The notes beneath the pieces were generated by a model, which searched no databases, had not been told where the DNA came from, and was given only the letters and a program-made list of their open reading frames with translations. Below are positions 2,384 through 58,860 of a stretch of DNA of 64,000 nt, piece by piece. The translations under genes and the position numbers were made by a program. This stretch comes from Methanobacteriota archaeon (GTDB lineage: Archaea > Thermoplasmatota > DTKX01 > VGTL01). Each line of letters opens with the position of its first letter. Position 1 is the stretch's first letter. Where the stretch lies: NCBI GenBank assembly GCA_016874675.1, contig VGTL01000002.1:9021-73020 (forward strand), read 5' to 3'.

Positions 2384-5236
<2,853 letters not shown>

Positions 5237-5240
5237 GGAT

Positions 5241-5262
5241 TGAAGGGGCAAGGGGCAAGGGT
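5241..5262 (+). repeat. GGGGCAA heptad mini-array (G-quadruplex-capable) in uvrA-uvrC junction
   Basis: aaggggcaaggggcaaggg lies between the uvrA stop (TAA 5234..5236) and the uvrC ATG 5264. Same heptad unit as the dispersed repeat family. Doubles as a purine-rich RBS. Confidence 0.6.
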
Positions 5263-5263
5263 T

Positions 5264-7123
5264 ATGACGGGCAGGAGGGACCGCAGGGAAGGACCGCAAA
5301 AGCCCCCGCAGGGGTTCGATGTGAGGGCACGGGCCCGGGAACTGCCCGAGCTGCCCGGCGTCTACCAGTTCCTCGACGCTTCGGGAAAGGTCCTTTACAT
5401 CGGAAAAGCGCGGAACCTGCGGAAGCGGATAGACTCCTACATACGGCCGCACTCGTGGCTCATCCCCGCGATGCTCGAAAGGGCGCGCTCGCTCGATTAT
5501 ACCGTTACGAAGACGGACCGCGAATCCCTCATCCTGGAGGCGTCGATGGTCCGCCACCACAAGCCGAGGTACAACGTGAAGCTCAAGGACGACAAGAGGT
5601 TCCCGTACCTCAAGCTCACGAAGGAGGGGTTCCCCCGCCTGATCCATGTCCGCCGGACCGCCGACGACGGGGCGACCTACTTCGGGCCTTTCACCTTCGG
5701 CCCGATAAACCGGACGATGAGGTTCGTGCGCAGGCTCTTCGGGCTGCGGCCCTGCGCCAGCCTGCTCCCGCGGGGCTGCATCTACGGGGACATGGGGAAC
5801 TGCCTGGCGCCGTGCCGGGGGAAATGCACCCAGAAGGAGTACGCGGAGGCGGTGGGGCAGGCGGCCAGATACCTCTCGGGGGAGCACCGCGCCCTCCTGA
5901 CCGGCCTCGAAGAACGGATGGAGGAGCTCTCCGAGCGGCAGGAATACGAGAAGGCTGCGGCGATCCGGGACCAGATAAGGACCGTATCCAGGCTCGCGGC
6001 GCGGCAGAGGGTGGATTTCCTCGACCCGGCCGACCGCGACGCGATCGTCGTGAGGAGGGCCGGGGCGGAGAGGGCGCTTGCGCTCCACTACTCGATAAGG
6101 GGCGGCATCGTGGTGGCGAAGAAGCACTTCAGCCTCGACGCGCCCGAAGGGTTGGGGCCCGGCGATGTCCTCGAGGGCTTCCTGACGCAGTACTACGGCA
6201 ATGCCTCCCCGCCACCGGAGATAATGATGCCCGCGGCCGTCCCGGGGCGCGCCCTGGTCGAGGACTGGCTCTCCTCGGTGGCGGGGCGCAGGGTGCGCCT
6301 GCTCCTGCCGAAGAAGGGCCCCCGGAGGAGATTGCTCGGGCTTATGGAATCGGACCTCGCCGCGCTGGCGGCCGCGATGGAGGGCGGGAAGCCGAGGGAC
6401 GGAGCCTACGACGAGGCGGCGGCCGAGCTGCAGAAGTGGCTCTGCCTTCCCCGTGTGCCGGAGAGCATCGAGGCCTACGACATATCGACGATCCAGGGGA
6501 CGAGCTCGGTCGGGGCGAAGGTGCGCTTCGAGAACGGCCTGCCGGCGAAGAGCGGGTACCGGAGGTTCAGGATCAAGAGCGTCGCCGGGCAGGACGATTT
6601 CGCCATGATGGGCGAGGTCCTCTCACGGAGGATGGGTCATATGGACGACGACCCCTTGCCGGACCTGATGTTGATCGATGGAGGCAAGGGGCAGCTAGGG
6701 GCGGCGCTAGGAGCGATGAAGAGGGCCGGAGCGAAGGGCGAGGGCGTGAAGGGAGGGGACGCGAATGTGGCGGGCGCCCGGCCGGCCCTGGCCGCGCTTG
6801 CGAAAAGGGAGGAGGAGGTGTTCGTTCCGGGAGAGGAGGCGCCCCTGCCGATTCCCCCCGGGTCGAAGGCGCGGCTCCTGCTCCAGAGGGTCCGGGACGA
6901 GGCGCACCGCTTTGCGGTCGGCTACCACCGCAAGCTCCGATCGAGGGGGCAGACCGGTTCGGCGCTGGACAGGGTCGAGGGGCTGGGCGCGAAGAAGGCG
7001 GCGGCGCTGCTCCGGCGGTTCTCGTCCGTGGCGGGAATACGGGCGGCGTCCGAGGACGAGCTGAGGCAGGTGGAGGGGATCGGGCCGAAACTGGCCAGGC
7101 AGGTCAAGGAAACCCTCGGATAA
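5264..7123 (+). CDS. uvrC: excinuclease ABC subunit C (UvrC)
   Basis: GIY-YIG N-terminal nuclease domain (LPELPGVYQFLDASGKVLYIGKARNLRKRIDSY), UvrB-interacting region, and C-terminal RNaseH-like/HhH domain (GLGAKKAAALLRRFSSVAGIRAASEDEL). ORF track starts at TTG 5240; ATG 5264 is preferred. Confidence 0.9.
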   Translation: MTGRRDRREGPQKPPQGFDVRARARELPELPGVYQFLDASGKVLYIGKARNLRKRIDSYIRPHSWLIPAMLERARSLDYTVTKTDRESLILEASMVRHHKPRYNVKLKDDKRFPYLKLTKEGFPRLIHVRRTADDGATYFGPFTFGPINRTMRFVRRLFGLRPCASLLPRGCIYGDMGNCLAPCRGKCTQKEYAEAVGQAARYLSGEHRALLTGLEERMEELSERQEYEKAAAIRDQIRTVSRLAARQRVDFLDPADRDAIVVRRAGAERALALHYSIRGGIVVAKKHFSLDAPEGLGPGDVLEGFLTQYYGNASPPPEIMMPAAVPGRALVEDWLSSVAGRRVRLLLPKKGPRRRLLGLMESDLAALAAAMEGGKPRDGAYDEAAAELQKWLCLPRVPESIEAYDISTIQGTSSVGAKVRFENGLPAKSGYRRFRIKSVAGQDDFAMMGEVLSRRMGHMDDDPLPDLMLIDGGKGQLGAALGAMKRAGAKGEGVKGGDANVAGARPALAALAKREEEVFVPGEEAPLPIPPGSKARLLLQRVRDEAHRFAVGYHRKLRSRGQTGSALDRVEGLGAKKAAALLRRFSSVAGIRAASEDELRQVEGIGPKLARQVKETLG

Positions 7124-7898: not shown

Positions 7899-8654
7899 GT
7901 GTCCAAGCGCTGGTTCCGGGAGAAAAAGCGCGAGCACTTCTACAAGCTAGCCAAGAAGGAGCACTACCGCTCCCGCGCGGCCTACAAGCTCAAGCAGATA
8001 CAGGGCCGGTTCAACGTGATTCACTATGATTTCCTGGTCGTCGACCTGGGCGCATCCCCGGGCGGCTGGTCCCAGGTGGCGGCCGGGATAGCCGGCCGCA
8101 ACGGGAAGGTGGTCGCCATCGACCGGGCACGCATGAAGCCCGTGGAGGACGTCTTGGTCCTGCGCGGGGACATGACCAAGGACGAGACCGTGGCCGCGCT
8201 GTTCCGGGCCCTCGGGGGCCGGAAGGCGGACGTGGTGCTTTCGGACATGTCCCCGGACATCTCCGGGAACTACTCCATCGACCACGCCCGGTCAATCGAG
8301 CTTTGCGGGACCGCCCTGGCCTTCGCCCGCCGGGCCCTTCGCCCCGGGGGCAACCTCGTGGTCAAGGCCTTCCAGGGAGACCTCTTCGGCCGCTTCCTGG
8401 CCGCGGTCCGCCAAGACTTCAGAAACGTCCACGCCTTCCACCCGGAGGCCTCCCGCCCCTCGAGCTCGGAGATATACGTTGTCGCCAAGGGATACGGCAT
8501 GGAGGGCGATGGGGGGAAGGCGCGGGGCGCAGGGCGCAGGGCGCAAGGGAAGGAGCAAGGCGCAGGGCGCAAGGCGCAAGGGAAGGAGCAAGGGGCAAGG
8601 GGCAAGGGGCAAGGGATGGACGGAGGATTTCGGGAAAGGGCTGAGGAGGAATAG
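7899..8654 (+). CDS. rlmE: 23S rRNA (uridine-2-prime-O)-methyltransferase RlmE/FtsJ, with repeat-encoded low-complexity C-terminal tail
   Basis: N-terminus SKRWFREKKREHFYKLAKKEHYRSRAAYKL and SAM-binding VVDLGASPGGWSQV with K-D-K-E residues are typical FtsJ. GTG start. The last ~50 aa (GKARGAGRRAQGKEQGAGRKAQGKEQGARGKGQG...) are encoded by the heptad array. Confidence 0.85.
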   Translation: MSKRWFREKKREHFYKLAKKEHYRSRAAYKLKQIQGRFNVIHYDFLVVDLGASPGGWSQVAAGIAGRNGKVVAIDRARMKPVEDVLVLRGDMTKDETVAALFRALGGRKADVVLSDMSPDISGNYSIDHARSIELCGTALAFARRALRPGGNLVVKAFQGDLFGRFLAAVRQDFRNVHAFHPEASRPSSSEIYVVAKGYGMEGDGGKARGAGRRAQGKEQGAGRKAQGKEQGARGKGQGMDGGFRERAEEE

Positions 8655-8745
8655 GCCCCCGCTTCCCCCCTTGCTCCTTGCACCTTGACCCTTGCGCCTC
8701 CAGCCTTGCGCCTTGCGCCTTGCGCCTTGCGCCTTGATATTGCCC
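8515..8745 (+). repeat. heptad-array hairpin repeat (G-rich arm 8515..8627, C-rich complementary arm 8665..8745)
   Basis: Tandem GCGCAGG / GCGCAAG / GGGGCAA heptads, followed after a ~40-nt spacer by the complementary CCTTGCG / CCTTGCC heptads. Can form a very long imperfect hairpin. The G-rich arm contains a (G4 CAA)x3 GGG G-quadruplex motif at 8592..8615. Confidence 0.85.
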
Positions 8746-10242: not shown

Positions 10243-10333
10243 GCGGCGGGCCCCCGGGCCCGCCGGCACGGACGGCACCGGCCCGGCCCGGCCGGGCGGG
10301 CGGCCGTCCCGAGACCGCAAGGGGGAACGGAAG

Positions 10334-10882
10334 ATGCCCACGAACGTGGAGCTGGTAAAGAAGGTCTGCCTTATTGGCGACCCCGGGGTGGGCAAGACCA
10401 GCCTCATCCGGCGCTTCGTGCTGGACCAGTTCTCCGACGACTACCTGTCCACCATCGGCGCCAAGGTGACCAAGAAGGAGAAGCTCATAGACATCAAGGA
10501 GCACGACCTGCGGGTCCACCTCAACCTGATGATCTGGGACGTCGCCGGCCAGAAGGAGTACCAGCAGTTCCACGAGATGTACCTCAAGGGCATGGAGGGC
10601 GTCCTGGCGGTCTGCGACCTCTCGCGGCGAAACACCTTCGAGCGGCTCAAGGACTCGCTTCGGCTCGTCGAGAAGCACGCCGGGAGCATCCCGGTCGTCT
10701 TCATGCTCAACAAGGCCGACCTGGTCGACCTCCCGGCCTTGGACCTGAGGGAGGTCAACGCCCTGGCCTCACAGCGGGGCATACCGGTCCTGCCCACGAG
10801 CGCCAAGACCGGGCAGAACGTCGAATCCTCCTTCAGCAAGCTGACGATGATGATAATTCGGGACTGGCTGGCGACGAAATAG
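10334..10882 (+). CDS. Ras-superfamily small GTPase (Rab/Ras-like, all five G motifs)
   Basis: G1 GDPGVGKTSL, G2 T in STIGA, G3 WDVAGQ, G4 NKAD, G5 SAK. 182 aa. RBS GGGGGAA before ATG. Immediately follows rpoN, in the position normally held by rpoK/eno/rps2. Confidence 0.8.
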   Translation: MPTNVELVKKVCLIGDPGVGKTSLIRRFVLDQFSDDYLSTIGAKVTKKEKLIDIKEHDLRVHLNLMIWDVAGQKEYQQFHEMYLKGMEGVLAVCDLSRRNTFERLKDSLRLVEKHAGSIPVVFMLNKADLVDLPALDLREVNALASQRGIPVLPTSAKTGQNVESSFSKLTMMIIRDWLATK

Positions 10883-13188: not shown

Positions 13189-13204
13189 AACGGTTGTTGA
13201 GGTT

Positions 13205-13328
13205 GGTCAAAGGCAGCAAGGCAGAAGGGCAGGAAGGGAGAAAGGCAGAAAGGGAGAACGGGGGGTCGACCGTCAGTCCCTTTCTGCCTTCCTGCCTTCC
13301 TGCCTTTGCCCGTTGCCCCTTGCCCCCC
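13205..13328 (+). repeat. heptad-array hairpin repeat between secY and DUF106 gene
   Basis: aaaggcagcaaggcagaagggcaggaagggagaaaggcagaaagggag, spacer, then complement ccctttctgccttcctgccttcctgcctttgccc. Contains the 21-mer ggcaggaagggagaaaggcag, also present at 29217 and (reverse complement) 28462. Confidence 0.85.
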
Positions 13329-13341
13329 GTGGGGCCGCTTA

Positions 13342-17512: not shown

Positions 17513-18196
17513 TCAGCCCTCCTTACGGCCGGCTTCGCCGGCCACTTCCGCCGCCCTCTCCGGAGGGGCCGGGGCTGCCGGCGCGGGCTTCTCCCCCGGC
17601 CGGGCCTTCTTGGCCTTCTTGCCCTTCTTCCCCCGGTGGCGCAGCTTGCGGTCGGCCTTCTTGAGCCTCCCGGGCATGATGATGCTGCGGGCCGCCTCGC
17701 GGCGGCGACGGCGCCTCTCCTCGGCGCGCTTGGCGGAGGGGCGGGCCTCGGTCCTGATTAGCCCGCGGAGCCGAAGCTGGGTGTCCAGGTGGTGGCGGTT
17801 GTGGAACATCCCGCCCTTGGCCTGCCGGTAGAGCGTCCGGTACACCGTGCGGTCGATGGTGCCCTCGTCGCGCAGCTCCCGGAGGCGCTTCCTTATGGGC
17901 CTGATGCGCGTCATCCACCGGCGCTTCGTGTCGAGGCGGGCGTTGGTGCCGCCGCGCCGGTGGGCCGGGCCCCGCCGGCGGCCCTTCTTCTTCTGGGCCC
18001 TCCTGAGGAGGCCCCGGAACCGGCCCTGGCCGGCGATCTGCCGGGCGGAGATGGCGCCCGACACGATGAGCTTGCGTACGTCCTTGCGCGTCACCGCCTC
18101 GGAGATGTCCTCGAGGCGGTTGGGGTCCATGTGGACCCGGTGCTTTCCGCAGCCGAGCATCATGGCCGCCATCCTCTTCTGGTTCGATATGTCCAT
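17513..18196 (-). CDS. rpl19e: 50S ribosomal protein L19e (eL19) with basic C-terminal extension
   Basis: MDISNQKRMAAMMLGCGKHRVHMDPNRLEDISEAVTRKDVRKLI is the canonical L19e. Confidence 0.9.
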   Translation of the reverse strand: MDISNQKRMAAMMLGCGKHRVHMDPNRLEDISEAVTRKDVRKLIVSGAISARQIAGQGRFRGLLRRAQKKKGRRRGPAHRRGGTNARLDTKRRWMTRIRPIRKRLRELRDEGTIDRTVYRTLYRQAKGGMFHNRHHLDTQLRLRGLIRTEARPSAKRAEERRRRRREAARSIIMPGRLKKADRKLRHRGKKGKKAKKARPGEKPAPAAPAPPERAAEVAGEAGRKEG

Positions 18197-18209: not shown

Positions 18210-19058
18210 TCACTCCTGAAGCCGGTTCAGTATCCTGATGCCCTTCCTCTCGGCCCGCTGCTCGATCATGCGCCGCTTGCGGGTGCCGACGCCGCGGGCT
18301 ATCCGCGCCGCCATCGTCTTGGGGTCGACGCGATCGAGGTCCAGCGGGTGGTGCACGAGCACCTCGGCGAAGCCCGACGGGTGCAGCCCCCTCGCCGCGG
18401 CAGGCCCGCCGTAGCCGATCGAGACCACGTTGATGCGGTATCTTATGTGGTGCCTGAGCTTCGAGTGCGTGCCCTTGGGCCGCCTCCAGGACGGCGCCAG
18501 CCGCTTGTAGTTGTAGGCCTCCTGGCGGATGAAGCGGGGGGTCTTGCCCTTGAGCACCTTCCGCAGGGCCATCGCCCTGACCACGTCGGCACCGAGCGTG
18601 GGCTTGATAGTCGGGGCGGCCTTCTTCCTGCCCTTCCCCTTCTTGGCCTTTCCCGCCCCCTTCTCCCCCTTCTCGGCCTTCTCGTCCTTCTCCTCCGCCC
18701 CCGCCCCGTCCTCCTCCTCCATTATCTCGGCCTCGACCTCGCCCTCCTCGGGCGGGGACCCGGCCTCCTCGGTCTTTCCGGCGGCGGGCCTCTCGGCCGG
18801 TCCCTTGGGCCTCTCCGGGGCCTTCCGCGGGGCCTCTTCGGGGCCCTCCTTCACCGTCGGGGGCGCGGGGGCGGCCTTCGCGGCGGCGGCGCGCTGGCTC
18901 GCCTCAGGCGCGGCCGTTTCCTTCCCGGCCACGGGGGCCGGCCCGGGGGAGACCTTCTTCACCGGGGCGGGAACCTCCGCGGGCCTTTGCTTGACCACCT
19001 TCTTCTCCAGCTTCCTCTCCACCTTCTCCTCCGCCTTCTTCCCGTGCCGTTCGGCCAA
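18210..19058 (-). CDS. rpl32e: 50S ribosomal protein L32e (eL32) with ~140-aa low-complexity N-terminal extension
   Basis: C-terminal half (RFIRQEAYNYKRLAPSWRRPKGTHSKLRHHIRYR...) is L32e. N-terminal half is Ala/Pro/Glu/Lys-rich low complexity. Confidence 0.85.
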   Translation of the reverse strand: MAERHGKKAEEKVERKLEKKVVKQRPAEVPAPVKKVSPGPAPVAGKETAAPEASQRAAAAKAAPAPPTVKEGPEEAPRKAPERPKGPAERPAAGKTEEAGSPPEEGEVEAEIMEEEDGAGAEEKDEKAEKGEKGAGKAKKGKGRKKAAPTIKPTLGADVVRAMALRKVLKGKTPRFIRQEAYNYKRLAPSWRRPKGTHSKLRHHIRYRINVVSIGYGGPAAARGLHPSGFAEVLVHHPLDLDRVDPKTMAARIARGVGTRKRRMIEQRAERKGIRILNRLQE

Positions 19059-22550: not shown

Positions 22551-23120
22551 CTATTCGGCCCTCTCCTTCCGCTCGGAGTGCTTGCTCACTATCGTGAACG
22601 CCACGGTCTTGCTCAGGGGCCGGCACTCCATGACGGTCACCCTGTCCCCCGTCCGGGCCCCGATGCAGGGCGGGCTGTGCACGGACATGCGGCTGGTGCG
22701 CTTGAGGTAGCGCTCGTACTTGGGGACGTAGACCAGCCTCTCCCGCCTTATGACGGCGCTCTTGTCCATCCCGTCGGAGACCACCTCGCCCTCGAATATC
22801 TGGCCCCGGACGGGGAGCCTCCCGTGGAAGGGGCAGTTTCGGTCGGTGCAGGCCTTCGCCGGCGGCCTGACGTCTATCCCGATGTTGGTCTTGCCGACCG
22901 GCTTGGGCCTGGCCGCCTTGGGGGCGGGCGCCTTCTTCCTGGACGCGGCATTCGGCGCGGCCGCCTTGGCCGCCCGGTGCTCCCTGGCCGGCTCGTGCTC
23001 GGCCGTCCGGTGCTCCTTTTGGGCCTCCTTGTCATGCGCCGGCCTGTGCGGCCTCGCTTCCTTGTCGACCGGCTTCTTGACAGTCTCGTTCTCTTCAGCC
23101 ATTTTCCCACTCACCTGCAT
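22551..23120 (-). CDS. rps17: 30S ribosomal protein S17 (uS17) with basic/His-rich N-terminal extension
   Basis: C-terminal OB fold (GQIFEGEVVSDGMDKSAVIRRERLVYVPKYERYLKRTSRMSVHSP). Start may be the internal ATG 23102 (MAEENE), which avoids overlap with the rnp1 stop. Confidence 0.85.
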   Translation of the reverse strand: MQVSGKMAEENETVKKPVDKEARPHRPAHDKEAQKEHRTAEHEPAREHRAAKAAAPNAASRKKAPAPKAARPKPVGKTNIGIDVRPPAKACTDRNCPFHGRLPVRGQIFEGEVVSDGMDKSAVIRRERLVYVPKYERYLKRTSRMSVHSPPCIGARTGDRVTVMECRPLSKTVAFTIVSKHSERKERAE

Positions 23121-25244: not shown

Positions 25245-25345
25245 CCTTGCACCCTCCTTCCTCTTCTCCCCTTCCCGTCCTTCCCTCTCTCCCCTTTCCT
25301 TTCTTCCTTCTTCCCCGCACCCTGCGCCCTGCGCCCCGCACCCCG
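25245..25345 (+). repeat. C-rich heptad array (single arm) between rps19 stop and rpl22 start
   Basis: ccttcctcttctccccttcc...ccccgcaccctgcgccctgcgccccgcaccccgcgcgc. On the mRNA (minus) strand this is a purine-rich GCGCAGG/GAAGGAA leader ending in GGAGGGTGCAAGG ATG (the rpl22 RBS). Confidence 0.75.
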
Positions 25346-25350
25346 CGCGC

Positions 25351-27639: not shown

Positions 27640-28863
27640 TCACGCACCCTGCTTCGACTCCTTCGAGATGTAGAGCACCTCGGTCTTCTCGGTTTCGGGG
27701 CCCTGCCACCGGATGGCGTCGCGCAGCTTGATGAGCCGCTTGGCGGGCCCGGGCACGGACCCCTGGATGAGGACGTAGCCGTTGCGGACACTGCCGTAGC
27801 CCAGGAAGCCGCCGGCGGGCGTCACCTCCTCGCCCCTGTCGCCGACCTTGAGGATGCGCTTGTTGAACTCGGTCCTCTGGTGCAGGCCCAGCTGCCCCGA
27901 CTGGGGGACCGTGCGCTGCACGTAGCTCGGGAAGTGCGGGCCCAGCGTGCCTATCATTCGCCGGTGCTTGCTGTTCTTGTGCGAGAGCAGCTTGGGGTGC
28001 CATTTCTTTATCGTGCCGGAGAAGCCCTTGCCCTTCGTCACCCCGGCAACGTCCACCATGAGCCCGTCCTCGGCGAACTGCTCTACCTTGAGCTCCTTTC
28101 CCAGGAGGCCCTTCGCGAACTCGACGCGCTGGTCGACGGTCCCGCCGCCGATCCGGACCTCCATCAGGTCGGGGACCTTCTTGGGCACGCCCGAGACGAG
28201 ATGCGGCTGGGTGTGCACCAGAAGCCTCACATCCTCGATCGCGGCCCGGTCCAGCTTCTTGAACCTCTCGATTGTCCCGCCTGAAAGCGACTCTTCGTGC
28301 TTCCTCTTCTTGCCCTTCCCTTCCTTGTCGCCCTTCTCTCCCTTGCCGCCCTTCTCCTCCGCCTCCGTCTCCGCCCTCTCCGCCTCCTCCCCCTTTCTGC
28401 CTTCCGTAGACGAGCTTCGCTCGTCTCGGCCTAAAAGACCGGCCCGCCGGTCTTTCAAGGTCTGCCTTTCTCCCTTCCTGCCCTCGTCCTTCCCCGCCCC
28501 CTCCGTATCGACGGTGAGCAGCCGCCCCAGGTGCTTCTCCAGCCGGTCGGCCCATATCTCGGTCGAGGTCTTCAGGCCGTAGGGAGAGCCCGAGTAGAAG
28601 CGGACCGCAACGGCCCGCATCGGCGGCACCTCGAGGACCGTCACCGGCGATTGAATCTCCTGGTCGGCGGTGGGGCTGTTCTTGTTCGGGTCGCGGACGA
28701 TGGCGTGGGTCATGCCCGCCTTGTAGCCGGCGAAGCCCTGCAGGCGCGGCGGCTGGGAGGCCCCGCGCTCGGGCCAGGCGTTGAAGTGGGCCCGGTGGCT
28801 CTGTATCCTCTTTCGGGGCCAGTAGCCCCTCGATCCGCGCTTCGGATGGCTCTTCTGCGCCAT
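27640..28863 (-). CDS. rpl3: 50S ribosomal protein L3 (uL3) carrying ~70-aa in-frame low-complexity insertion
   Basis: MAQKSHPKRGSRGYWPRKRIQSHRAHF...FAGYKAGMTH is the canonical L3 N-terminus, and the C-terminal region is conserved. RBS GGAGGAAA before ATG 28863. Internal segment EGAGKDEGRKGERQTLKDRRAGLLGRDERSSSTEGRKGEEAERAETEAEEKGGKGEKGDKEGKGKKRKHEE is encoded by repeat-family sequence. Confidence 0.9.
   Translation of the reverse strand: MAQKSHPKRGSRGYWPRKRIQSHRAHFNAWPERGASQPPRLQGFAGYKAGMTHAIVRDPNKNSPTADQEIQSPVTVLEVPPMRAVAVRFYSGSPYGLKTSTEIWADRLEKHLGRLLTVDTEGAGKDEGRKGERQTLKDRRAGLLGRDERSSSTEGRKGEEAERAETEAEEKGGKGEKGDKEGKGKKRKHEESLSGGTIERFKKLDRAAIEDVRLLVHTQPHLVSGVPKKVPDLMEVRIGGGTVDQRVEFAKGLLGKELKVEQFAEDGLMVDVAGVTKGKGFSGTIKKWHPKLLSHKNSKHRRMIGTLGPHFPSYVQRTVPQSGQLGLHQRTEFNKRILKVGDRGEEVTPAGGFLGYGSVRNGYVLIQGSVPGPAKRLIKLRDAIRWQGPETEKTEVLYISKESKQGA
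28290..28500 (+). repeat. repeat-family sequence (heptads + two small hairpins) embedded in-frame in the rpl3 coding region
   Basis: Plus strand reads cttcccttccttgtcgcccttctctcccttgccgcccttctcc...cctttctgccttccgtagacgagcttcgctcgtctcgg cctaaaagaccggcccgccggtctttcaagg tctgcctttctcccttcctgcc. Contains the 21-mer ctgcctttctcccttcctgcc (28462..28482), the reverse complement of the 21-mer at 13228 and 29217. Confidence 0.8.
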
Positions 28864-29188
28864 GTCGTTTCCTCCTTTGCCGTGAGCGGGCGCGCTTTTC
28901 GGAGCTTTTGGCGCCAGCCGCCTGGGCAAGCGCTCTCCGGCCTGCGTAGGCCCGCCTCGAACTGCTCCGCGGGGGTTCACGGGTCCGGCCGCGTGCGCCT
29001 GTGGCGCCGGGGACCGTCGGTCCGCCGCGGCACTTTGCGACACAAACCGTAACGCTTAGCGCCGCGGCCATAACGGGTGGCCGCCGCGCCACAGGGGTAA
29101 TTTCCGGTTAACCCTTTGGCGTTGGGTTTGCGCCCCGCCTTGCATTTCGCTCCCCGGCTTTTCCGGGGAACGGTCGATAGAAGTTCCC

Positions 29189-29198
29189 CTATATAAAC
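29189..29198 (-). promoter_or_regulatory. TATA box (cTATATAAAc) of the main ribosomal-protein (L3) operon
   Basis: Strong TATATAAA in the AT-rich island 29180..29215, ~325 nt upstream of the rpl3 ATG on the minus strand. Nearly palindromic, so it could also fire on the plus strand. Confidence 0.4.
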
Positions 29199-29214
29199 TA
29201 TACTATGTAATAAG

Positions 29215-29275
29215 AAGGCAGGAAGGGAGAAAGGCAGCAAGGCAGCAAGGGGCGGTGGCGCAGGGCGCAAGCGAC
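29215..29275 (+). repeat. purine-rich heptad array adjacent to L3 operon promoter
   Basis: aagaaggcaggaagggagaaaggcagcaaggcagcaaggggcggtggcgcagggcgcaagcg, including the shared 21-mer at 29217..29237. Confidence 0.8.
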
Positions 29276-29415
29276 CATAATAATGGTCATGACCACAGAG
29301 CCGAAATATACAACGTCCGACCGGATACGATTCCGGTGAAGAAAATGTCCATCAGCCCGATCCCAATCCCGTCCCACCGAACAAGTTTTATACCCGACGC
29401 ACGAATGAAGACCCG

Positions 29416-29733
29416 ATGCCCCGAAGGGGTCGTCCCATGCTGAGCCCCGGCGGTCAGCCCGCCTGGGCCGCACGCCTGCTTCAAGAAGTCGACCTCGGCG
29501 AGATAGCGGGCGACATAGAGCGCTTCGGGCGCGATGACCGCTGGCTCCGGGAGAAATTGGGCCTTTTGCGGAAGGATTTCCCGGGAATGTTCATCGCCGT
29601 CCATGAGAGGAGGGTGGTCGCCTCCGGGAGGACCCTGCTGGAGGTCCGGCGGAAACTGGTCTCAGCCGGAATGGACCCCCGAAGGTGCGTCATCAGGCTC
29701 GTCCTGGCCGTAGAGCCCGACTGGATGTTGTAG
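29416..29733 (+). CDS. hypothetical small protein (upstream partner of retropepsin-like gene)
   Basis: 105-aa ORF (alternative ATG at 29437). TATA-like ttttata at 29384..29391 and hairpin ccccgaagggg just upstream. 13-nt gap to the next gene. Confidence 0.5.
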   Translation: MPRRGRPMLSPGGQPAWAARLLQEVDLGEIAGDIERFGRDDRWLREKLGLLRKDFPGMFIAVHERRVVASGRTLLEVRRKLVSAGMDPRRCVIRLVLAVEPDWML

Positions 29734-29746
29734 GGGGAGCGGCCGC

Positions 29747-30196
29747 ATGGACATCCCGCTCCTTTTCGACGAGGCAGGGAAGCTGTTCCTTTACGCGCAG
29801 GTATTCAGCCCGGGAATCCCCCGGCCGAAACCGCTCAGGATGCACCTCGACACCGGGGCAAGCTCGACGACCCTTTCCCTCAAGGACGCCGAGGAGCTCG
29901 GCGTGGATGCCGGGAGCCTTCGCCCGAGCGGAAGAACGAACTACGGCTACGGCGGCAGGATGGATGTGCGAAGGCTCCCGGAGGCGTGCCTGGTCTTTCT
30001 CACCGTGGACAGGACCGCGTTCACCGTGCCGTTGGACAGTGTCCAGGTCAACTGCACATTCTCCGCGGTCAGGGGAAAAGGCAAGGACCTGGTGGTCTAC
30101 GGGATGCCGTCCGTTCTCGGCGTGGACCTCCTTCTCAAAGCCGGCATGGGCCTGAGCGCGAGCTGGAAGGACAGGACGGCGCGTCTTTCGGCCTGA
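29747..30196 (+). CDS. retropepsin-like (clan AA) aspartic protease
   Basis: Active-site motif HLDTGASSTTLS (D-T-G-A) in the N-terminal third, second hydrophobic flap-like segment (LVVYGMPSVLGVDLL). 149 aa, about right for a single-lobe retropepsin-like fold that dimerises. Confidence 0.7.
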   Translation: MDIPLLFDEAGKLFLYAQVFSPGIPRPKPLRMHLDTGASSTTLSLKDAEELGVDAGSLRPSGRTNYGYGGRMDVRRLPEACLVFLTVDRTAFTVPLDSVQVNCTFSAVRGKGKDLVVYGMPSVLGVDLLLKAGMGLSASWKDRTARLSA

Positions 30197-30289
30197 GCGC
30201 TCCGGCGCGGGGCGGTCGGCGTTCAGAGCCCAGGCACCGGAACGGGCACCCCGTCTATGACCCGGAGTGCGTCCCAGACGCCCGTATGT

Positions 30290-30515
30290 CCCCTGCACCC
30301 TGCACCCTGAGTTTCCCTTGCGCCTTGCGCCTTCCTAACCCCGCACTGAAGTGCGGGGCTTCAACGCTTTCCTATGTTGACCGACCCCGGACTCAAGTCC
30401 GGGGTATCTAGCTTTCAACCTTGCGCCTTGCGCCTTGCGCCCTGCGCCTTCCCATCGCGCCTTGCGCCGTCGTCCCCTGCTCCCTTGCTGCCTTGCTGCC
30501 TTGCTCCCTTGCTCC
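30290..30515 (+). repeat. composite repeat module between convergent genes: heptad arrays + two near-identical GC hairpins + atctagctttca box
   Basis: cccctgcaccctgcaccctg...cccttgcgccttgcgcc; hairpin ccccgcac-tgaa-gtgcgggg (30339..30358); hairpin ccccggac-tcaa-gtccgggg (30385..30404); atctagctttca (30406..30417); then accttgcgccttgcgccttgcgccctgcgcc...cccttgctgccttgctgccttgctccc. Confidence 0.85.
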
Positions 30516-30521
30516 CCTCGT

Positions 30522-30992
30522 CTATTCCTTCACCATATACACTTTCTTCATCCTGTCGCCCATCTGTATCCGGTCGACGACCTCGATGCCCTCGAGGACC
30601 TGGCCGAAGACGGTGTGCTTGCCGTCGAGGTGCGGCGTCGGGACGTGGCAGATGAAGAACTGGCACGAGCCGGTGTCGCGCCCCTTGTGGGCCATGGACA
30701 GCGAGCCGCGCTGGTGGCGCCGGCGGTTGTGGTCCACCTCGCACTTTATCGTGTAGCCGGCGTCGCCCGTGCCGTTGCCCTTGGGGTCCCCGCCCTGGAT
30801 CATGAAGCCCGGGATGACGCGGTGGAACTTGATACCGTTGTAGAAGCCCTTCTTGACGAGCTTCAGGAAGTTGTCCACCGTGCCGGGAGCGTCGTTCTTG
30901 TAGAGCTCCAAAACGATCTTGCCCTTGTCCGTCTCCATCGCCACCACTGGAAGGTTCCCCTCTGCCGGCATCATGACCACCTTCGAGCCCAT
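30522..30992 (-). CDS. peptidyl-prolyl cis-trans isomerase, cyclophilin type
   Basis: [25 protein letters not shown] and [20 protein letters not shown] are cyclophilin signatures. True start probably internal (MPAEG.. or METDKG..). Confidence 0.88.
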
Positions 30993-33628: not shown

Positions 33629-33671
33629 GCGCGCGCGAGTATAATAAGATGTCGCAATGAAAGGTGGGAAG

Positions 33672-33850
33672 AAGAAGGCACAGGGCGCAAGGCGCAGGGC
33701 GCAGGGCTTGAGGGTAAAGGCGCAAGGGGCAAGGGGCAAGGTGAAGAACCCTTTCCTCCCTTGCGCCTTCACCCTTGCGCCTTTACCCTCAAGCCCTGCG
33801 CCCTGCGCCTTGCGCCTTGCGCCTTCCCTTGCGCCCTGCGCCTTGCGCCC
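33672..33850 (+). repeat. heptad-array hairpin repeat in divergent promoter region (surface protein / thrS)
   Basis: ggcacagggcgcaaggcgcagggcgcagggcttgagggtaaaggcgcaaggggcaaggggcaaggtg; short spacer; complementary ccttgcgccttcacccttgcgcctttaccctcaagccctgcgccctgcgccttgcgccttgcgcc. A long near-perfect palindrome. Confidence 0.85.
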
Positions 33851-33902
33851 CGTTCTCGGGAAACCTTTATCTTGGCCCGTCCGTCTAGGGGGCCCGATAG
33901 CG

Positions 33903-45980: not shown

Positions 45981-46022
45981 ATGAATAATTAAACTATGCC
46001 GGAAAATTACTATACGATTCGC

Positions 46023-46153
46023 GAAAGGCAGAAAGGCAGGAAGGCAGCAAGGCAGCAAGGGGGAACGGAACGAACCGTCGTCCCCTTGTTGCCCTGCTGC
46101 CTTTCTGCCTTGCTGCCTCCCTTGCTGCCTTGCTGCCTTTCTCCCTTGCTGCC
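46023..46153 (+). repeat. heptad-array hairpin repeat between CDF gene start and tRNA-Ile
   Basis: gaaaggcagaaaggcaggaaggcagcaaggcagcaaggggg; spacer; ccccttgttgccctgctgcctttctgccttgctgcctcccttgctgccttgctgcctttctcccttgctgcc. Confidence 0.85.
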
Positions 46154-46211
46154 CGATCTTCCCTACTGGAAATATATTAAAATACCCCGGTGTTATTTAG
46201 TGCCCCGCAAC

Positions 46212-46286
46212 GGGCCCATAGCTTAGACTGGCTGGAGCGCCCGGCTGATAACCGGGCGGTCGAGAGTTCAAATCTCTCTGGGCCCA
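46212..46286 (+). tRNA. tRNA-Ile (anticodon GAT)
   Basis: 75-nt cloverleaf: acceptor GGGCCCA/TGGGCCC, anticodon stem CCCGG/CCGGG with loop CTGATAA, T-arm GAGAG-TTCAAAT-CTCTC, discriminator A. Confidence 0.85.
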
Positions 46287-46469
46287 TGCATCCCCGAAGG
46301 GGATGCAGGCGCCTCAGCGCACAGAGATTTCAAGATTTTGATGAAACTTTTAATTGCGAACAAAGGAAGGAATTAAAAGTTTCGTTCAAATCTCTCTGGG
46401 CCCATGCATCCCCGAAGGGGATGCAGGCGCCTCAGCGCACAGAGATTTCAAGATTTTGATGAAACTTTT
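46267..46469 (+). repeat. 85-bp tandem direct repeat (2 copies, 118-bp period) including the last 20 nt of tRNA-Ile; att-site-like
   Basis: Copy 1 at 46267..46351 and copy 2 at 46385..46469 are identical: ttcaaatctctctgggcccatgcatccccgaaggggatgcaggcgcctcagcgcacagagatttcaagattttgatgaaactttt. Each contains the 9-bp-stem hairpin gcatcccc-gaa-ggggatgc. Confidence 0.85.
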
Positions 46470-49528: not shown

Positions 49529-49547
49529 GGCGTTCCCCCGGTGCCAT

Positions 49548-49642
49548 TGCGGTTGCGGGGATTCGAACCCCGGTTTGAAGCTGGTCCCGGCGCGCGGTGG
49601 CGCCATGGGAAGCTCCAGTCCTAACCACTAGACTACAACCGC
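49548..49642 (-). tRNA. tRNA-Gly (anticodon CCC) with a ~23-nt canonical-position intron
   Basis: Reverse complement: GCGGTTG TA GTCT AGTGGTTA GGAC T GGAGC TTCCCA [TGGCGCCACCGCGCGCCGGGACC] A GCTTC AAAC CGGGG TTCGAAT CCCCG CAACCGC A. Intron follows anticodon-loop position 37. Confidence 0.65.
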
Positions 49643-49662
49643 ACGGAGCTGGGGATATCTGG

Positions 49663-49735
49663 CGTTGGGGTTTGGGGTTCGGGGCATGCGAGGCAGGGGT
49701 CGGGGTACGGGGTGCGGGGTGCTGGGAAGGGAGGA
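49663..49735 (+). repeat. G-tract array (telomere-like TTTGGGG/GGGGTNC units), strong G-quadruplex motif
   Basis: ggcgttggggtttggggttcggggcatgcgaggcaggggtcggggtacggggtgcggggtgctggg. Seven G4 tracts within 65 nt. Lies between tRNA-Gly and the small ORF. Confidence 0.8.
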
Positions 49736-51499: not shown

Positions 51500-51605
51500 C
51501 GATTGGTTCGGGGGACATGCTGGCGCAGCTGGTCAAGGGGACGTGTTGGTCCTATTGGTTCGGGGGACGTGTTGTTGATGTGGGTCAGGGGGACGGAGGG
51601 GGGCG
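51500..51605 (+). repeat. ~52-bp tandem duplication with G5 tracts at convergent gene junction
   Basis: gattggttcgggggacatgctgg...ggtcaaggggacgtgttgg / ctattggttcgggggacgtgttg...gggtcagggggacggagggggg. Four copies of gggggacRtg-like cores. Confidence 0.7.
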
Positions 51606-53522
51606 GCAGCCGGGAGACCAGAAATCCGCGACGTCCCTTGCGGGGTCCGATGATTCGCGAAGGTCCGGGAGGTATTCCCTGAACTGGACGGCGCGGCGGT
51701 CCAGGATGACGGCCACGCCGCGGTCGCGCTCGCTGCGGATGAGCCTGCCGATGGTCTGCAGGAGGCGCCGGGCGGTCGGGGCCCTCACGGCGTAGTCCCA
51801 GCCCTTCCCGAACCGTATGTCGTAGTAGTACTGGAGCGCCTTCTGGCGGGCCGTCGGCTTCGGGTAGGGGATGCCCACGATGACGGCGACGTCCAGCTCC
51901 CGGTCGGGGAAGTCGATGCCCTCGCTGACCCGGCCCCCGATCACGGAGAGCAGTACCGCGCCCTCCTCGCCCCTCCGGCCCTCCTCCTTGAAGCTGTCCA
52001 CGGTCTCGAGCAGGTCCTGCTGGCTGGCGCCCCGCTCCTCGACGAATATCCGGCGGCCGGCGGACCGCCCCAGCCCCATCGCCAGGGAGCGCTCCAAAAG
52101 GTCGAAGCTCGGGAAGAACACCGCGGTGTTGCGGGAGGTGGCGCGGCAGATCTCCCCGGCCTTGCCAAGTATCCCGGAGAACATCTCCTCGTCGGTGAGC
52201 CGGTCCTCGTACTTCATCGAGACCGACGGGTCGCAGAGCACGAGGCGGTTCTCCGGGGGGAAGATGCCGGGGAAGGCGCGTAAAAGCGTCCGGTCGCCCA
52301 ACCCCAGGGAGTCCCGGTACTCCTCGAGGGGCGAGAGCGTCCCGGACATGTGCAGGCCCGAGTGGCAGCGGCCCAGGGGTTCGGAGGCGAGGCCGGGGTC
52401 CATGCAGTAGGCCTCGAGGCGGGGGCTCTCCCCGTCCTTCACGAGCTTGACATAGGCGTCGCTCTCCAGGCCCATCCAGAGCGCCAGGAAGGAGCCCACG
52501 GAGTGGAGGTGGGACCGCGGCACGCGGCCCCCCTTGCGCCGGTTCTCCCTTATCGCCTCGCCGTGGGCGGCCAGGTTCGCCACGGCCGACTCGAGCCGGT
52601 TGGAGGTCCAGCGGAAGGAGTACATGAGCTCCTCCTCCACCGCGCCCGGCGGCACCATGCCGTCCTCGTCGATGAGGTACTCGTCGCGCAGCTGGAGGAC
52701 TATCTGCTCCATCCGGGCGCAGAGATCGCTGACCCGGACCTCGTCTTGGACGTACAGCCCTCCCAGCTCCGTCGCCTCCTGCGAGGCGAGCCTGAGGGTC
52801 TGCAGGCCCAGCGAGAGCGACTTGAGCGAGCGGGCGAACTCGGGCAGGTTGTGCGCCTCGTCCACCACCACCACGAGGTCCTCGAGCGGGCAGTTCATCC
52901 AGTCGAGGAGCCGGGCGCGTATGAACGGGCTGAGAAAGTAGACGTAGGGCGCGACCACCACCGCGGCGGAGCGCGCGAGGAGCTTGGCGGCCTCATATGG
53001 GCAGAGCCCCGCCTCCCGGCAGTGCCGGGCCATCTCCTCCACCGTGGGCAGCGTGCGCTCGCACCAGGACTGGAGCTCTCCGGTCCCGGCGGCCCGGAGC
53101 TCCTCGAAGAACGGGCAGCCGCCCGGCTCGCGACGGCGGGAGGTCTCCTTCCGGTCGTTGCAGAGCACCGAGAGCTCCTCGGGGGAGGCCGTCCTCCACT
53201 CCCGCTCGGTCGCGAGCAGGAGGCAGGTGCTGTGGCGCCCCTGGATGCCCGTGCCCAGCACGCGGGAGCGGCCCGAGATGGCCCGAAGCTCCCGGAACAC
53301 CTGCACCTGCTGGGAGTTGGTCCGGGTGAGATACAGCAGCCGCTTGCCGTGCCGGGCGGCACCGAAGAGCGCCGGCACGAGGGCGCAGACCGTCTTGCCC
53401 GTGCCGGAGCCCGCCTCGGCGAGGGCGCTCGTCCCCGACCCCACCGCACCGGCGAAGAGCCCCATCAGCTCGAGCTGGACGGGGCGGGGCTCGTAGGGGA
53501 ACATCCCGAGGTGGGAATCCAT
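51585..53522 (-). CDS. xpd: ATP-dependent DNA helicase, XPD/Rad3 (ERCC2) family with Fe-S domain
   Basis: Motif I EAGSGTGKT, motif II VVVDEAHNL (DEAH), four Fe-S cysteines in the Arch/FeS insertion (HSTC...C..C..C), C-terminal HD2 motifs (GIDFPDRELDVAVIVGIPYP, RLIRSERDRGVAVILD). Confidence 0.88.
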   Translation of the reverse strand: MDSHLGMFPYEPRPVQLELMGLFAGAVGSGTSALAEAGSGTGKTVCALVPALFGAARHGKRLLYLTRTNSQQVQVFRELRAISGRSRVLGTGIQGRHSTCLLLATEREWRTASPEELSVLCNDRKETSRRREPGGCPFFEELRAAGTGELQSWCERTLPTVEEMARHCREAGLCPYEAAKLLARSAAVVVAPYVYFLSPFIRARLLDWMNCPLEDLVVVVDEAHNLPEFARSLKSLSLGLQTLRLASQEATELGGLYVQDEVRVSDLCARMEQIVLQLRDEYLIDEDGMVPPGAVEEELMYSFRWTSNRLESAVANLAAHGEAIRENRRKGGRVPRSHLHSVGSFLALWMGLESDAYVKLVKDGESPRLEAYCMDPGLASEPLGRCHSGLHMSGTLSPLEEYRDSLGLGDRTLLRAFPGIFPPENRLVLCDPSVSMKYEDRLTDEEMFSGILGKAGEICRATSRNTAVFFPSFDLLERSLAMGLGRSAGRRIFVEERGASQQDLLETVDSFKEEGRRGEEGAVLLSVIGGRVSEGIDFPDRELDVAVIVGIPYPKPTARQKALQYYYDIRFGKGWDYAVRAPTARRLLQTIGRLIRSERDRGVAVILDRRAVQFREYLPDLRESSDPARDVADFWSPGCRPPPSP

Positions 53523-55188: not shown

Positions 55189-55271
55189 TAATTCCTACAA
55201 CAGACTTCAATGTTTATATCCTTATTGGTCTTTTTCATGTCGGGTATTGAGACTTGGCCCGATAGGCGGAC

Positions 55272-55360
55272 GGGGAAGGGGAGCGGGCAGCGGGCAGCGG
55301 GCAGCGGGGAGCGGTGACGGAACGAATCCGTCCGTCCACCGCTCCCCGCTGCCCCGCTGG
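55272..55360 (+). repeat. GGGCAGC heptad-array hairpin (15-bp perfect stem cagcggggagcggtg / caccgctccccgctg)
   Basis: ggggaaggggagcgggcagcgggcagcgggcagcggggagcggtgacggaacgaatccgtccgtccaccgctccccgctgccccgctgg. Confidence 0.85.
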
Positions 55361-55377
55361 ATCAATTGGAGGGAATG

Positions 55378-55450: not shown

Positions 55451-55497
55451 TTGTCCATCCCACATCGGGGGGAACCGATTTGAATATTTCGCGCGAT

Positions 55498-55630
55498 GGC
55501 AGGGTGCAGGGTGCAGGGTGCGGGGTGCGGGGTGCGGGGTAACGTACGGTGTCCATCTTGAACCCGGTACCCCATGCCCCGAGATATCCCCCGCACCCTG
55601 CACCCTGCACCCTGCACCCCGCACCCTGCG
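55498..55630 (+). repeat. GCAGGGT/GCGGGGT heptad-array hairpin with G-quadruplex motif
   Basis: (gcagggt)x3(gcggggt)x3; 50-nt spacer; complement (cccgcac)(cctgcac)x3 cccgcaccctgcgg. Confidence 0.85.
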
Positions 55631-55703
55631 GTCGGCCACGAGCTTTATATTGTCGTTCGGACATCCCGGTTTCCCTTCGCCAGGGGGAGCTGGTAGGGTT
55701 CGC

Positions 55704-56705
55704 ATGAACCTTGGTCGGCGGCTTGTGATCGCCATCGGTGGAAATGCAATCCTGCAAGAGGGCCAGAGGGGCACCGCCGAGGAGCAACGGGCCAACCTGG
55801 AGGTCGCCTGCGAGTCCCTCGCCGCGCTCATCCGCCCCGGCGTCAATGTCGTCCTCACGCACGGGAACGGCCCCCAGGTGGGGAACATTCTCGTCCAGAA
55901 CGAGGCCGCCAGGGCGCAGGTGCCGGCGCTCCCGCTCGATGTCTGCGGGGCCCAGTCCCAGGGCTCCCTGGGCTATCTGATCCAGCAGGTCCTGTCCGGA
56001 GTCCTCCGGAGCCGCAACATCCGGCGCGATGTGATGGCGCTCGTCACCCAGACCGTGGTGTCCCCCGACGACCCGGCGTTCCTCTCCCCGAGCAAGCCCA
56101 TCGGCCCATATTACAGGGAGCCCGAGGCCCGCGCTCTCTCGCAGGAGAAGGGATGGAAGCTCGTCGAGGTCGGCAAGCGCCACTGGCGGAGGGTGGTGGC
56201 CTCGCCCGACCCGCTGGAGATCGTGGAGAAGGGGATGATCCGGAAGCTCATGCGCCAGGGGACGGTCGTCATAGCGGCAGGCGGCGGGGGCATCCCGGTG
56301 GTGCGGCGCGACGGGAGGCTCGCCGGCGTGGAGGCGGTTGTCGACAAGGACCTGGCCTCGGCCACCCTGGCGCGCGATGTCGGGGCCGACGCGATGATCC
56401 TGCTCACTGACATAGAGAAGGTGGCCATCAACTTCCGCACCCCGGAGGAGCGGTTCCTGGACCGGATGACCGTGGAGGAGGCGGGGCGATATCTCAAGGC
56501 GGGCCACTTTCCGGCGGGGAGCATGGGACCGAAGATAGAGGCGGCGATCAGGTTCCTGGCCCCCAGGCCGGAGCCCACGCTGGACTCGTTTGGCGCGCCG
56601 GGAGCCCGGTTCTCCCGCCCGCAGCTCAAGGTCATCATAGCCTCCCTGAACGCCGCCGAGCGGGCAGCCCGCGGGAAGACCGGCACCACCATCACCCCGG
56701 ACTGA
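55704..56705 (+). CDS. arcC: carbamate kinase
   Basis: MNLGRRLVIAIGGNAI start, HGNGPQVG, and AAGGGGIPV are carbamate kinase signatures. ATG 55704; the ORF track extension runs through the repeat and tRNA. Confidence 0.85.
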   Translation: MNLGRRLVIAIGGNAILQEGQRGTAEEQRANLEVACESLAALIRPGVNVVLTHGNGPQVGNILVQNEAARAQVPALPLDVCGAQSQGSLGYLIQQVLSGVLRSRNIRRDVMALVTQTVVSPDDPAFLSPSKPIGPYYREPEARALSQEKGWKLVEVGKRHWRRVVASPDPLEIVEKGMIRKLMRQGTVVIAAGGGGIPVVRRDGRLAGVEAVVDKDLASATLARDVGADAMILLTDIEKVAINFRTPEERFLDRMTVEEAGRYLKAGHFPAGSMGPKIEAAIRFLAPRPEPTLDSFGAPGARFSRPQLKVIIASLNAAERAARGKTGTTITPD

Positions 56706-56736
56706 TGTCCGGGGCTCTACGCTATGCTGTGGTGAA

Positions 56737-56900: not shown

Positions 56901-56965
56901 CCCTTGACCCGTTCCCCGATAGTATAAATATCCCCTGCCCTCTATACGGGTACGAAGGAGACCGG

Positions 56966-58756: not shown

Positions 58757-58860
58757 AGGCAGCAGGCAACTGGCAGCGGGCAGTGGTGGGACGACGGACA
58801 ATCGTCCCCCGCTGCCCGCTGCCTCTGCCCCGCTGCCCCCCCGCCGCTCCCCGCTGCCCC
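58757..58860 (+). repeat. GGCAGCG heptad-array hairpin between convergent genes
   Basis: aaaggcagcaggcaactggcagcgggcagtggtgggacgacggacaatcgtcccccgctgcccgctgcctctgccccgctgcc. Confidence 0.8.

Follow-up and report, generated by a model that had tools for sequence, protein, structure and literature searches.

How can the gene of an essential ribosomal protein come to carry DNA of the kind that otherwise fills the gaps between genes? The question is raised by the gene of ribosomal protein uL3 (L3) on contig VGTL01000002.1 of a Methanobacteriota archaeon (Thermoplasmatota; GenBank assembly GCA_016874675.1), which lies in the 64,000-nt stretch of that contig analysed here (the window). An earlier interpretation made from the letters alone (hereafter the sequence-only reading) held that a repeat element had entered L3 in frame and had been tolerated there as a surface loop. 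Our analysis separates two layers of this insert. As a whole, the extra residues are a lineage-wide, hypervariable, highly charged expansion segment, predicted to be disordered, and not a fresh 70-residue insertion. Within that segment only about 94 nt (28391-28484) are, judged by their sequence, repeat-derived, and this piece is probably a copy of the lineage's intergenic array-hairpin-hairpin-array module, inverted relative to the L3 reading direction.

The expansion segment of uL3

The 407-aa open reading frame (ORF) belongs to the uL3 family by both of the comparisons applied to it. The Pfam Ribosomal_L3 profile (PF00297) matches it in two separate stretches (1.7e-84), and the solved archaeal uL3 chains 9nri (1e-89) and 1s72 (2e-83), of 337-338 aa, align to residues 1-121 and 202-406. 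The gene is the first of an L3-L4-L23-L2-S19-L22-S3 operon whose gene order is identical in all relatives. The corresponding NCBI protein, MBM4247942.1 (326 aa), which belongs to a MAG from Lake Tanganyika, begins at Met82 and is without the conserved N-terminal 81 residues (28620-28863, minus strand), a start-codon mis-annotation. In the alignments with 9nri and 1s72, residues from about 122 to 201/207 correspond to just ~10-17 reference residues, so that the unusual length reported by the sequence-only reading is real and amounts to about 70 extra residues in place of a short linker. The peptide quoted there is E121-E191, coded by 28291-28503. The segment stands where canonical archaeal uL3 has its linker after the N-terminal barrel, and the reading frame runs through it as one continuous ORF of 407 codons with conserved domains on both sides.

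The AlphaFold model gives predicted local distance difference test (pLDDT) values of 27-37 across residues 117-191, and the segment is accordingly predicted to be disordered; the model is mediocre overall (mean pLDDT 54) and was used for this disorder call alone. The length of the linker also varies among solved uL3 structures, in which eukaryotic chains and archaeal chains of 361-365 aa are ~15-20 residues longer here than the Haloarcula chain. Of the proposed tolerance as a surface loop, the part that stands is that the site accepts extra residues.

Comparison with orthologues places the segment deep in the lineage. The nearest protein clusters (P0002-P0023, 63-88% identity) come from metagenome-assembled genomes (MAGs) labelled Thermoplasmata or 'Euryarchaeota', and all 22 of them have a G/K/E-rich segment of variable length at the identical site, with L3 lengths from 364 to 426 aa across the insert-bearing orthologues. 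A metagenome scan recovered 10 further loci with a G/K/E-rich segment at the same site, and distant L3 proteins of the Methanomassiliicoccales type (328-336 aa) are without it. Its presence at one site in all 22 orthologues makes the insert, taken as a whole, an ancestral trait of the lineage. Orthologue alignment, which the sequence-only reading had proposed as a means of mapping the insertion point, thus speaks against a single insertion event. The nearest subclade shares only the C-terminal end of the segment, KKKKH[DE]ESLS, and the remainder cannot be aligned between species.

Roughly 95 nt of the segment (28296-28390) are typical of ordinary low-complexity coding sequence. Tandem Repeats Finder (TRF) reports periods of 9, 18, 12, 15 and 6 nt in this part, autocorrelation peaks at 9, and the only k-mers that it shares are 13-15-mers with the K/E-rich tails of other ribosomal proteins.

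Array-derived DNA within the segment

In plus-strand order, the piece at 28391-28484 consists of two octamer units, hairpin 1, TCGGCC, hairpin 2, CAAGG and three octamer units (Table 1). The sequence-only reading had described heptad units at this place; the units are octamers, AAGGCAGN, and outside the patches the insert shows periods of 9, 12, 15 and 18 nt. Its two other observations proved accurate. Both small hairpins are perfect, and the shared 21-mer was recovered together with a longer 24-mer: patch 1 (28461-28484) is the exact reverse complement of 13226-13249, and 28462-28482 is the reverse complement of 29217-29237, 734 nt away.

Table 1. Position of the uL3 gene, the parts of its expansion segment and the related intergenic elements (window coordinates)
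Feature	Position	Strand	Basis or remark
uL3 gene, 407 aa	27640..28863	-	translation, Pfam PF00297, solved uL3 chains, operon context
Expansion segment, residues ~119-196; G/K/E/R-rich, hypervariable, lineage-specific	28276..28509	-	alignments, pLDDT, 22 orthologues
C-terminal anchor of segment, KKRKHEESLS	28282..28311	-	common to subclade P0002-P0010 as KKKKH[DE]ESLS
Low-complexity coding part of segment, EEAERAETEAEEKGGKGEKGDKEGKGKK; periods multiples of three	28296..28390	-	TRF, autocorrelation
Octamer patch 2, about two units GGAAGGCAGAAAGGG (coding strand); start of second EGRKGE motif	28391..28405	-	15/15 with 13278-13292
21 codons R133-T153, RQTLKDRRAGLLGRDERSSST, spanning both hairpins	28405..28467	-	peptide in no relative; atypical codon usage
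Hairpin 1, AGACGAGC-TTC-GCTCGTCT; perfect 8-bp stem, 3-nt loop	28408..28426		inside 18-nt match to L004 9564-9581
Hairpin 2, AAAGACCGG-CCCG-CCGGTCTTT; perfect 9-bp stem, 4-nt loop	28434..28455		strong predicted mRNA stem
Octamer patch 1, three units AGGGCAGG AAGGGAGA AAGGCAGA (coding strand); codes EGRKGERQ	28461..28484	-	exact inverted copy of intergenic array
TATA-box-like TTTATATA of L3 operon, putative promoter element	29190..29197	-	read from sequence
Octamer array directly upstream of the L3-operon TATA box; holds 29217-29237, 21-nt inverted partner of patch 1	29215..29250		sequence
Octamer array with 24-nt inverted match 13226-13249; left arm of inverted pair with 13279-13326	13209..13258		sequence

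Tandem octamers (three and two units) and exact matches of 24, 21 and 15 nt identify both L3 patches as members of the array family, and patch 1 has an 8-nt autocorrelation of 0.68. In a scan of the whole window, the 24-mer of L3 was the longest match to the array set among all non-array sequence, followed by one of 16 nt. None of 20,000 codon shuffles of the insert reached 24 nt (the maximum, 21, occurred once), and Markov chains trained on the insert itself almost never did. Chance k-mer sharing was ruled out by the codon shuffles, the Markov models and the window-wide scan. The three unit variants AGGGCAGG, AAGGGAGA and AAGGCAGA follow one another in one and the same order in L3 and in the arrays at 13226 and 29217, which argues for copying rather than independent slippage.

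The hairpin block between the patches is set apart by its own features. About 24 comparable hairpins were found in the whole window, and the only other adjacent pairs are at 30339/30384, in an intergenic repeat region, and at 46287/46405, in an 86-nt duplicate. The peptide R133-T153, which spans both hairpins, is missing from every relative in the orthologue alignment. The GC content at third codon positions is 0.67 here and 0.92-0.93 in the conserved domains; rare codons make up 8 of the 21, compared with 7/118 and 11/211 in those domains. In this respect the block looks like recently recruited non-coding DNA. An Rfam search returned no match in the L3 insert.

A homologue of the block was found in the genome of orthologue P0005 (L004), whose L3 is 85% identical to that of the window. 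The piece 28391-28484 aligns locally with L004 9560-9650 at ~71% identity over ~90 nt, and the core of this alignment is an exact 18/18 match, TCCGTAGACGAGCTTCGC, at L004 9564-9581, in intergenic DNA upstream of the L3 promoter of that genome. A blastn comparison of the hairpin block with L004 gave 26/28 identity (E 1e-4 to 5e-6). The L004 stretch contains no credible ORF; it has a heptad-like tract on one side and on the other an octamer array, which stops just short of the L3-operon TATA box of that genome. Its hairpin AAGGAACGGTC-TCG-GACCGTTCCTT is homologous to hairpin 2 and has kept its pairing through two compensatory double changes. The two layouts match (repeats, two hairpins, repeats) but the unit types differ, and the L004 module is inverted relative to the L3 reading direction, as is the 21-nt match at 29217-29237. 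Apart from this homologue, no second copy of the hairpin block was found in the 64 kb or in the 170+ loci examined. A weaker link joins 20/21 nt of the L004 module to the reverse complement of the L3 segment of L009.

Arrays within L3 recur in sister species. In four further species groups the L3 segment likewise contains arrays, with units of 7 or 8 nt, lengths that are not multiples of three. In L009 (P0006) the unit is CAGAAAGG (8 nt, about 2.5-3 units in L3), and 19 nt recur, reverse-complemented, in the 225-nt array that immediately precedes its own L3 TATA box. In L010 (P0011), L011 and L012 it is GGGTGCC/GGGGGCC (7 nt, up to 42 nt, coding for GAGGRVPGAGHAGA), with 19 nt in L010 being the reverse complement of an array upstream of L3. 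L014/L015 (P0017) have GCAAGGGK (8 nt, 54 nt), and 18 nt match, in direct orientation, an array in the spacer between S19 and L22. These own-genome matches in three of the groups (19, 19 and 18 nt) compare with 0-3 of 3,000 codon shuffles reaching the observed lengths. The window, L009 and L010 are alike in that the partner array is inverted and directly upstream of the L3 promoter, and L011 and L012 retain the L3 patch though their upstream arrays have other units. The turnover is rapid: P0011 and P0012 are 94% identical yet differ by a 12-residue indel within the array, and P0017, 90% identical to P0011, has an octamer array in place of the heptamer array of the latter.

The species with short segments (L004, L006, L007, L172 and L173) have no array patch in L3. 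In L004, L006 and L007 no match of at least 12 nt to arrays was found, one 13-nt match of K/E type in L006 being to a non-array site. The sequence-only reading had held that low-complexity segments of the same length in relatives, free of repeat similarity, would tell against an inserted repeat element, and these three genomes go part of the way to that result.

Tandem arrays of 7- or 8-nt units (AAGGCGC, AAGGCAGN, GGGCAGC, GGGGTGC and others) fill almost every larger intergenic gap of the window, at 5236-5300, 8500-8745, 13200-13335, 29205-29270, 30285-30525, 33665-33855, 46015-46165, 49660-49735, 51500-51610, 55270-55362, 55495-55635, 56780-56915 and 58750-58865. They are usually inverted pairs around a short centre, which would form long hairpins or cruciforms, and several are capable of forming G-quadruplexes. 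Besides L3, the sole non-array site matching arrays over at least 16 nt is 10317-10332, whose 16 nt (GCAAGGGGGAACGGAA) recur exactly in the centre of the array pair at 46055; the site is located just upstream of ORF 10334-10882. In relatives the corresponding positions also carry arrays, built of other units; as a rule these stop 15-30 nt upstream of the TATA box of the L3 operon.

The position equivalent to 29215-29250 is occupied by arrays in L004, L009, L010, L011, L012, L014/15 and L172, and in relatives too the same TATA-box-like motif lies between array and leader. The inverted pair around a short centre is not the arrangement in L3, where both patches are direct. Arrays in the same orientation around small hairpins were found only at 30285-30525 and in the upstream modules of L004 and L009. 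Consequently, the statement that intergenic copies share the architecture of the L3 insert holds for these three places and fails for most copies. For 16 of 18 arrays the purine-rich strand is free of stop codons in every frame; it encodes G/K/R/E/Q/A, the opposite strand P/C/L/F/S, and the L3 coding strand is the purine- or G-rich one in every case.

Origin of the repeat-derived piece

The explanation that we favour, and consider somewhat more probable than all others together, is that the piece arose by copying at the DNA level, most likely through a template switch during replication or else through ectopic conversion. The partners would be the purine-rich, low-complexity coding tract of L3 and the partly complementary pyrimidine-rich arrays some 0.7-1 kb upstream on the same strand. 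With entry and exit inside array units, upstream sequence would be copied into the segment in inverted orientation; frame-keeping products alone would survive, the disordered loop would tolerate them, and the product would be translated as part of a flexible loop assumed to be solvent-facing. The same process would have recurred in sister species with other 7- or 8-nt unit types. Survival of such a copy would be possible because the arrays are almost stop-free, because their purine-rich strand is hydrophilic (G/R/K/E/Q/A) and because the net length keeps the frame. The copied peptide itself probably has no specific function, and transposition is an unlikely route. Where partners can be named, the 21 nt at 28462-28482 (with 29217-29237) and the patches of L009 and L010 are reverse complements of nearby sequence of their own genomes; for the hairpin block a candidate donor is seen only in L004, and the partner in L014 is direct.

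Several of these observations weigh against copying from the neighbouring array. The hairpin block has no donor in its own 64-kb window and its sole homologue is in one relative, so that the direction and timing of the transfer are matters that we infer. For the 24-mer, the match to an array at a distance of 15 kb is slightly better than that to the adjacent upstream array, so that the latter remains a candidate donor. The array matched in L014 is direct and lies 3 kb downstream, and a switch to an inverted neighbour cannot account for every case. Low-complexity inserts can share 17-18 nt with unrelated loci, and the 18-19-nt matches in relatives are therefore individually weaker than that of the window.

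A wider form of the proposal would have the whole K/E/G-rich expansion of uL3 arise from, and be continually rebuilt by, inverted copying of the pyrimidine-rich repeat module that precedes its own promoter. It might extend this origin to the long charged extensions of other ribosomal proteins, and might let the complementarity also regulate the operon. We regard this as unlikely. If it were true, the stop-free 7- and 8-nt intergenic arrays would be a genome-wide standing source of new disordered sequence in essential genes.

Improbable, though less so than the explanations taken up last, is pure slippage in place, by which the L3 patches would have grown from local purine-rich sequence and resemble arrays through composition alone. 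The segment is indeed a slippage-prone low-complexity tract, AAGG-rich units resemble K/G/E/R codons, and background matches of 17-18 nt between low-complexity regions exist. Slippage does not, however, readily yield a 24-nt match with three variants in the same order, a result absent from all 20,000 shuffles. Nor does it explain why the hairpin block, which is not repetitive, has an exact 18-nt core and compensated stems in common with the intergenic module of L004, or why the L3 patch matches the genome's own arrays in each of four genomes with different units.

We give about the same small credence to selection for complementarity itself, in which upstream array and L3 patch would regulate the operon by forming a DNA cruciform or loop, by serving as binding sites for a protein that recognises arrays, or by pairing as RNA with a transcript that is antisense or comes from upstream. 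In three genomes, each with its own unit sequence, an upstream array is matched by a patch in L3 that lies 0.7-1.0 kb downstream of it, and the resulting stems of 19-21 bp would be stable. Against such a role, the short segments of at least five members of the clade (L004, L006, L007, L172, L173) have no such match, and L011 and L012 keep the patch despite upstream arrays of other units. The array is also upstream of the TATA box and so probably outside the L3 mRNA, and the best match in the window is the distant array.

The insertion of the whole ~70-residue insert into a canonical L3 as one recent mobile element, of the type of a miniature inverted-repeat transposable element (MITE) or a Rickettsia palindromic element (RPE), is very unlikely. 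It has in its favour the repeat-family k-mers, the two palindromes, the preserved ORF and the foreign-looking codon usage of the block. Yet all close relatives are expanded at the same site with a shared anchor motif, and about 60% of the insert is ordinary K/E/G low-complexity sequence with periods in multiples of three. Terminal inverted repeats are absent, the flanking patches 28391-28405 and 28461-28484 having the same orientation. The only candidate for a target-site duplication, TCTGCCTT at 28396-28403 and 28461-28468, is inseparable from an array unit, being one itself, and its 65-nt spacing is not a multiple of three. A dispersed multicopy family was likewise not seen in the window and the 170+ loci, the L004 homologue being the single further copy. 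With neither terminal inverted repeats nor a dispersed family found, we do not class the element as a MITE. What survives of the proposed repeat-element insertion is that ~94 nt are repeat-derived and in frame; the ~70 residues are not one element, given the segment in all 22 orthologues.

Finally, an assembly chimera, or an intron or intein whose removal would leave a canonical L3, is scarcely credible: nothing positive speaks for it beyond the strong local RNA structure that the hairpins give, whereas the identical insert on at least five independent contigs from three Joint Genome Institute (JGI) samples and in an NCBI MAG protein excludes a chimera, the ORF is continuous, the predicted RNA structure has no bulge-helix-bulge-like fold, the K/E/G-rich composition is not intein-like, and relatives have their inserts at the same site.

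Surroundings of the gene and comparison with known systems

Several features of the locus were recorded beside the L3 gene. Between the TATA box and the L3 start lies a leader of ~300 nt (28864-29165, minus strand) that is strongly conserved in 10 clade genomes and includes long invariant blocks. Of the 60 pairs that RNAalifold predicts in this leader, 10 have compensatory changes. The leader matches no Rfam family (best E 0.71); it may be an undescribed leader of a ribosomal protein operon or a non-coding RNA. Beside the L3 promoter, between L3 and a peptidyl-prolyl isomerase (PPIase) gene, is a 1.2-kb cassette (29270-30456) with a DUF5678-like ORF (105 aa) and an ORF for a retropepsin-like aspartyl protease (149 aa). 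Its flanks are the inverted arrays 29215-29268 and 30457-30510 (54 nt, 81% complementary), and relatives carry other genes at this position, for an S27-like zinc ribbon, a DUF4129 protein and an AAA-lid protein. Further down the operon, a pyrimidine-rich array of ~100 nt (25245-25350) lies between the S19 stop and the L22 start; this spacer measures 11 nt in L004 and holds a different array in L014 (3986-4027).

Other ribosomal proteins of the window also have long K/E/G/A-rich extensions, a pattern repeated in relatives: L32e (18213-19058) has 282 aa with its Pfam domain only at 173-278, L24 (21464-22138) has 225 aa, S17 (22554-23120) has 189 aa with its domain at 111-178, and L19e (17516-18196) has 227 aa, all on the minus strand. 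A hairpin family, CCCCGGAC-N4-GTCCGGGG, occurs beside arrays at 30384-30405 and 56695-56714, and a similar hairpin, CCCCGCAC-TGAA-GTGCGGGG, at 30339-30358. The 86-nt duplicate mentioned above is a perfect direct one (46266-46351 and 46384-46469) and comprises the 3' end of tRNA-Ile (tRNA at 46212-46286) and the 9-bp hairpin TGCATCCCC-GAA-GGGGATGCA. At 49547-49643 (minus strand) there is a 97-nt tRNA-like gene, probably intron-containing, for which ARAGORN gives an undetermined identity with the 4-base anticodon 'ccca' and Rfam a tRNA score of 55 bits.

Universal ribosomal proteins are usually deemed frozen, and here a segment of uL3 differs between species that are 90-94% identical. Counting the window, L3 contains arrays with units of 7 or 8 nt in five species groups, and four of these groups have the identical array sequence among the non-coding repeats of the same genome. 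The case would show, in concrete and traceable form, how repeat DNA between genes can become new intrinsically disordered sequence in the product of an essential gene, and would set an archaeal counterpart beside the growth of eukaryote-specific segments in ribosomal proteins. With units of 7 or 8 nt, the gain or loss of one unit by slippage would put an essential gene out of frame, and selection against this hazard should be measurable in population data. A literature search found no specific description of this L3 insertion or of these arrays in Thermoplasmata, and the nearest parallels come from other systems.

The favoured mechanism has its closest counterpart in template-switch (quasi-palindrome) mutations, reportedly described by Ripley (1982), by Dutra and Lovett (2006) and by Loytynoja and Goldman (2017). 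In these, switches at microhomologies replace or lengthen a short tract with the reverse complement of sequence close by. The events described usually involve tens of nucleotides and donors within tens to hundreds of bases, whereas the putative donor of L3 is ~0.7-1 kb away and the full candidate donor is seen only in a relative.

RPEs are multicopy families of ~150 bp, each with a conserved encoded peptide, found in many unrelated genes (PMC10969869). The L3 piece resembles RPEs and MITEs in that palindrome-bearing intergenic repeat DNA stands in frame within a gene and adds a peptide compatible with the fold (PMC10969869). It differs from RPEs in being ~94 nt of 8-nt tandem units and two hairpins with no second copy in 64 kb, in having neither terminal inverted repeats nor a recognisable target-site duplication, and in lying within a pre-existing low-complexity loop, apparently copied from the gene's own upstream region.

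Borgs offer an archaeal likeness, with fast-evolving tandem repeats between and within genes, the genic ones giving K/E-rich disordered segments (PMC9879509). In Borgs, every repeat within an ORF has a unit length divisible by three (PMC9879509). The low-complexity part of the L3 segment (28296-28390) has such amino acid tandem repeats, while the array-derived patches, with a period of 8 nt (7 or 8 in relatives), do not. These patches have units identical to those of intergenic arrays and are in frame via their total length alone, and the host gene, unlike those of Borgs, is chromosomal, essential and ribosomal.

The G-rich heptamers of Xanthomonas and Nostoc form 7-nt arrays genome-wide, near ORF ends and under-represented in coding sequence (PMC4692102). 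Their arrays, with one G-rich strand, resemble the intergenic arrays of the present lineage; they differ in being bacterial, in having a single consensus per genome and in having no reported copying into an essential gene (PMC4692102). The present lineage has many unit types, usually in inverted array pairs.

Eukaryote-specific segments of ribosomal proteins are similar in being disordered, charged insertions or tails on universal ribosomal proteins, but they are conserved within eukaryotes and often have assigned roles (for example PMC6131548, PMC11764897), whereas the L3 segment is hypervariable between species. Taken against these systems, what is most likely new, as far as the sequence comparisons indicate, is the recruitment into an essential ribosomal protein of array DNA with a period not divisible by three, together with hairpins, apparently from the gene's own upstream region.

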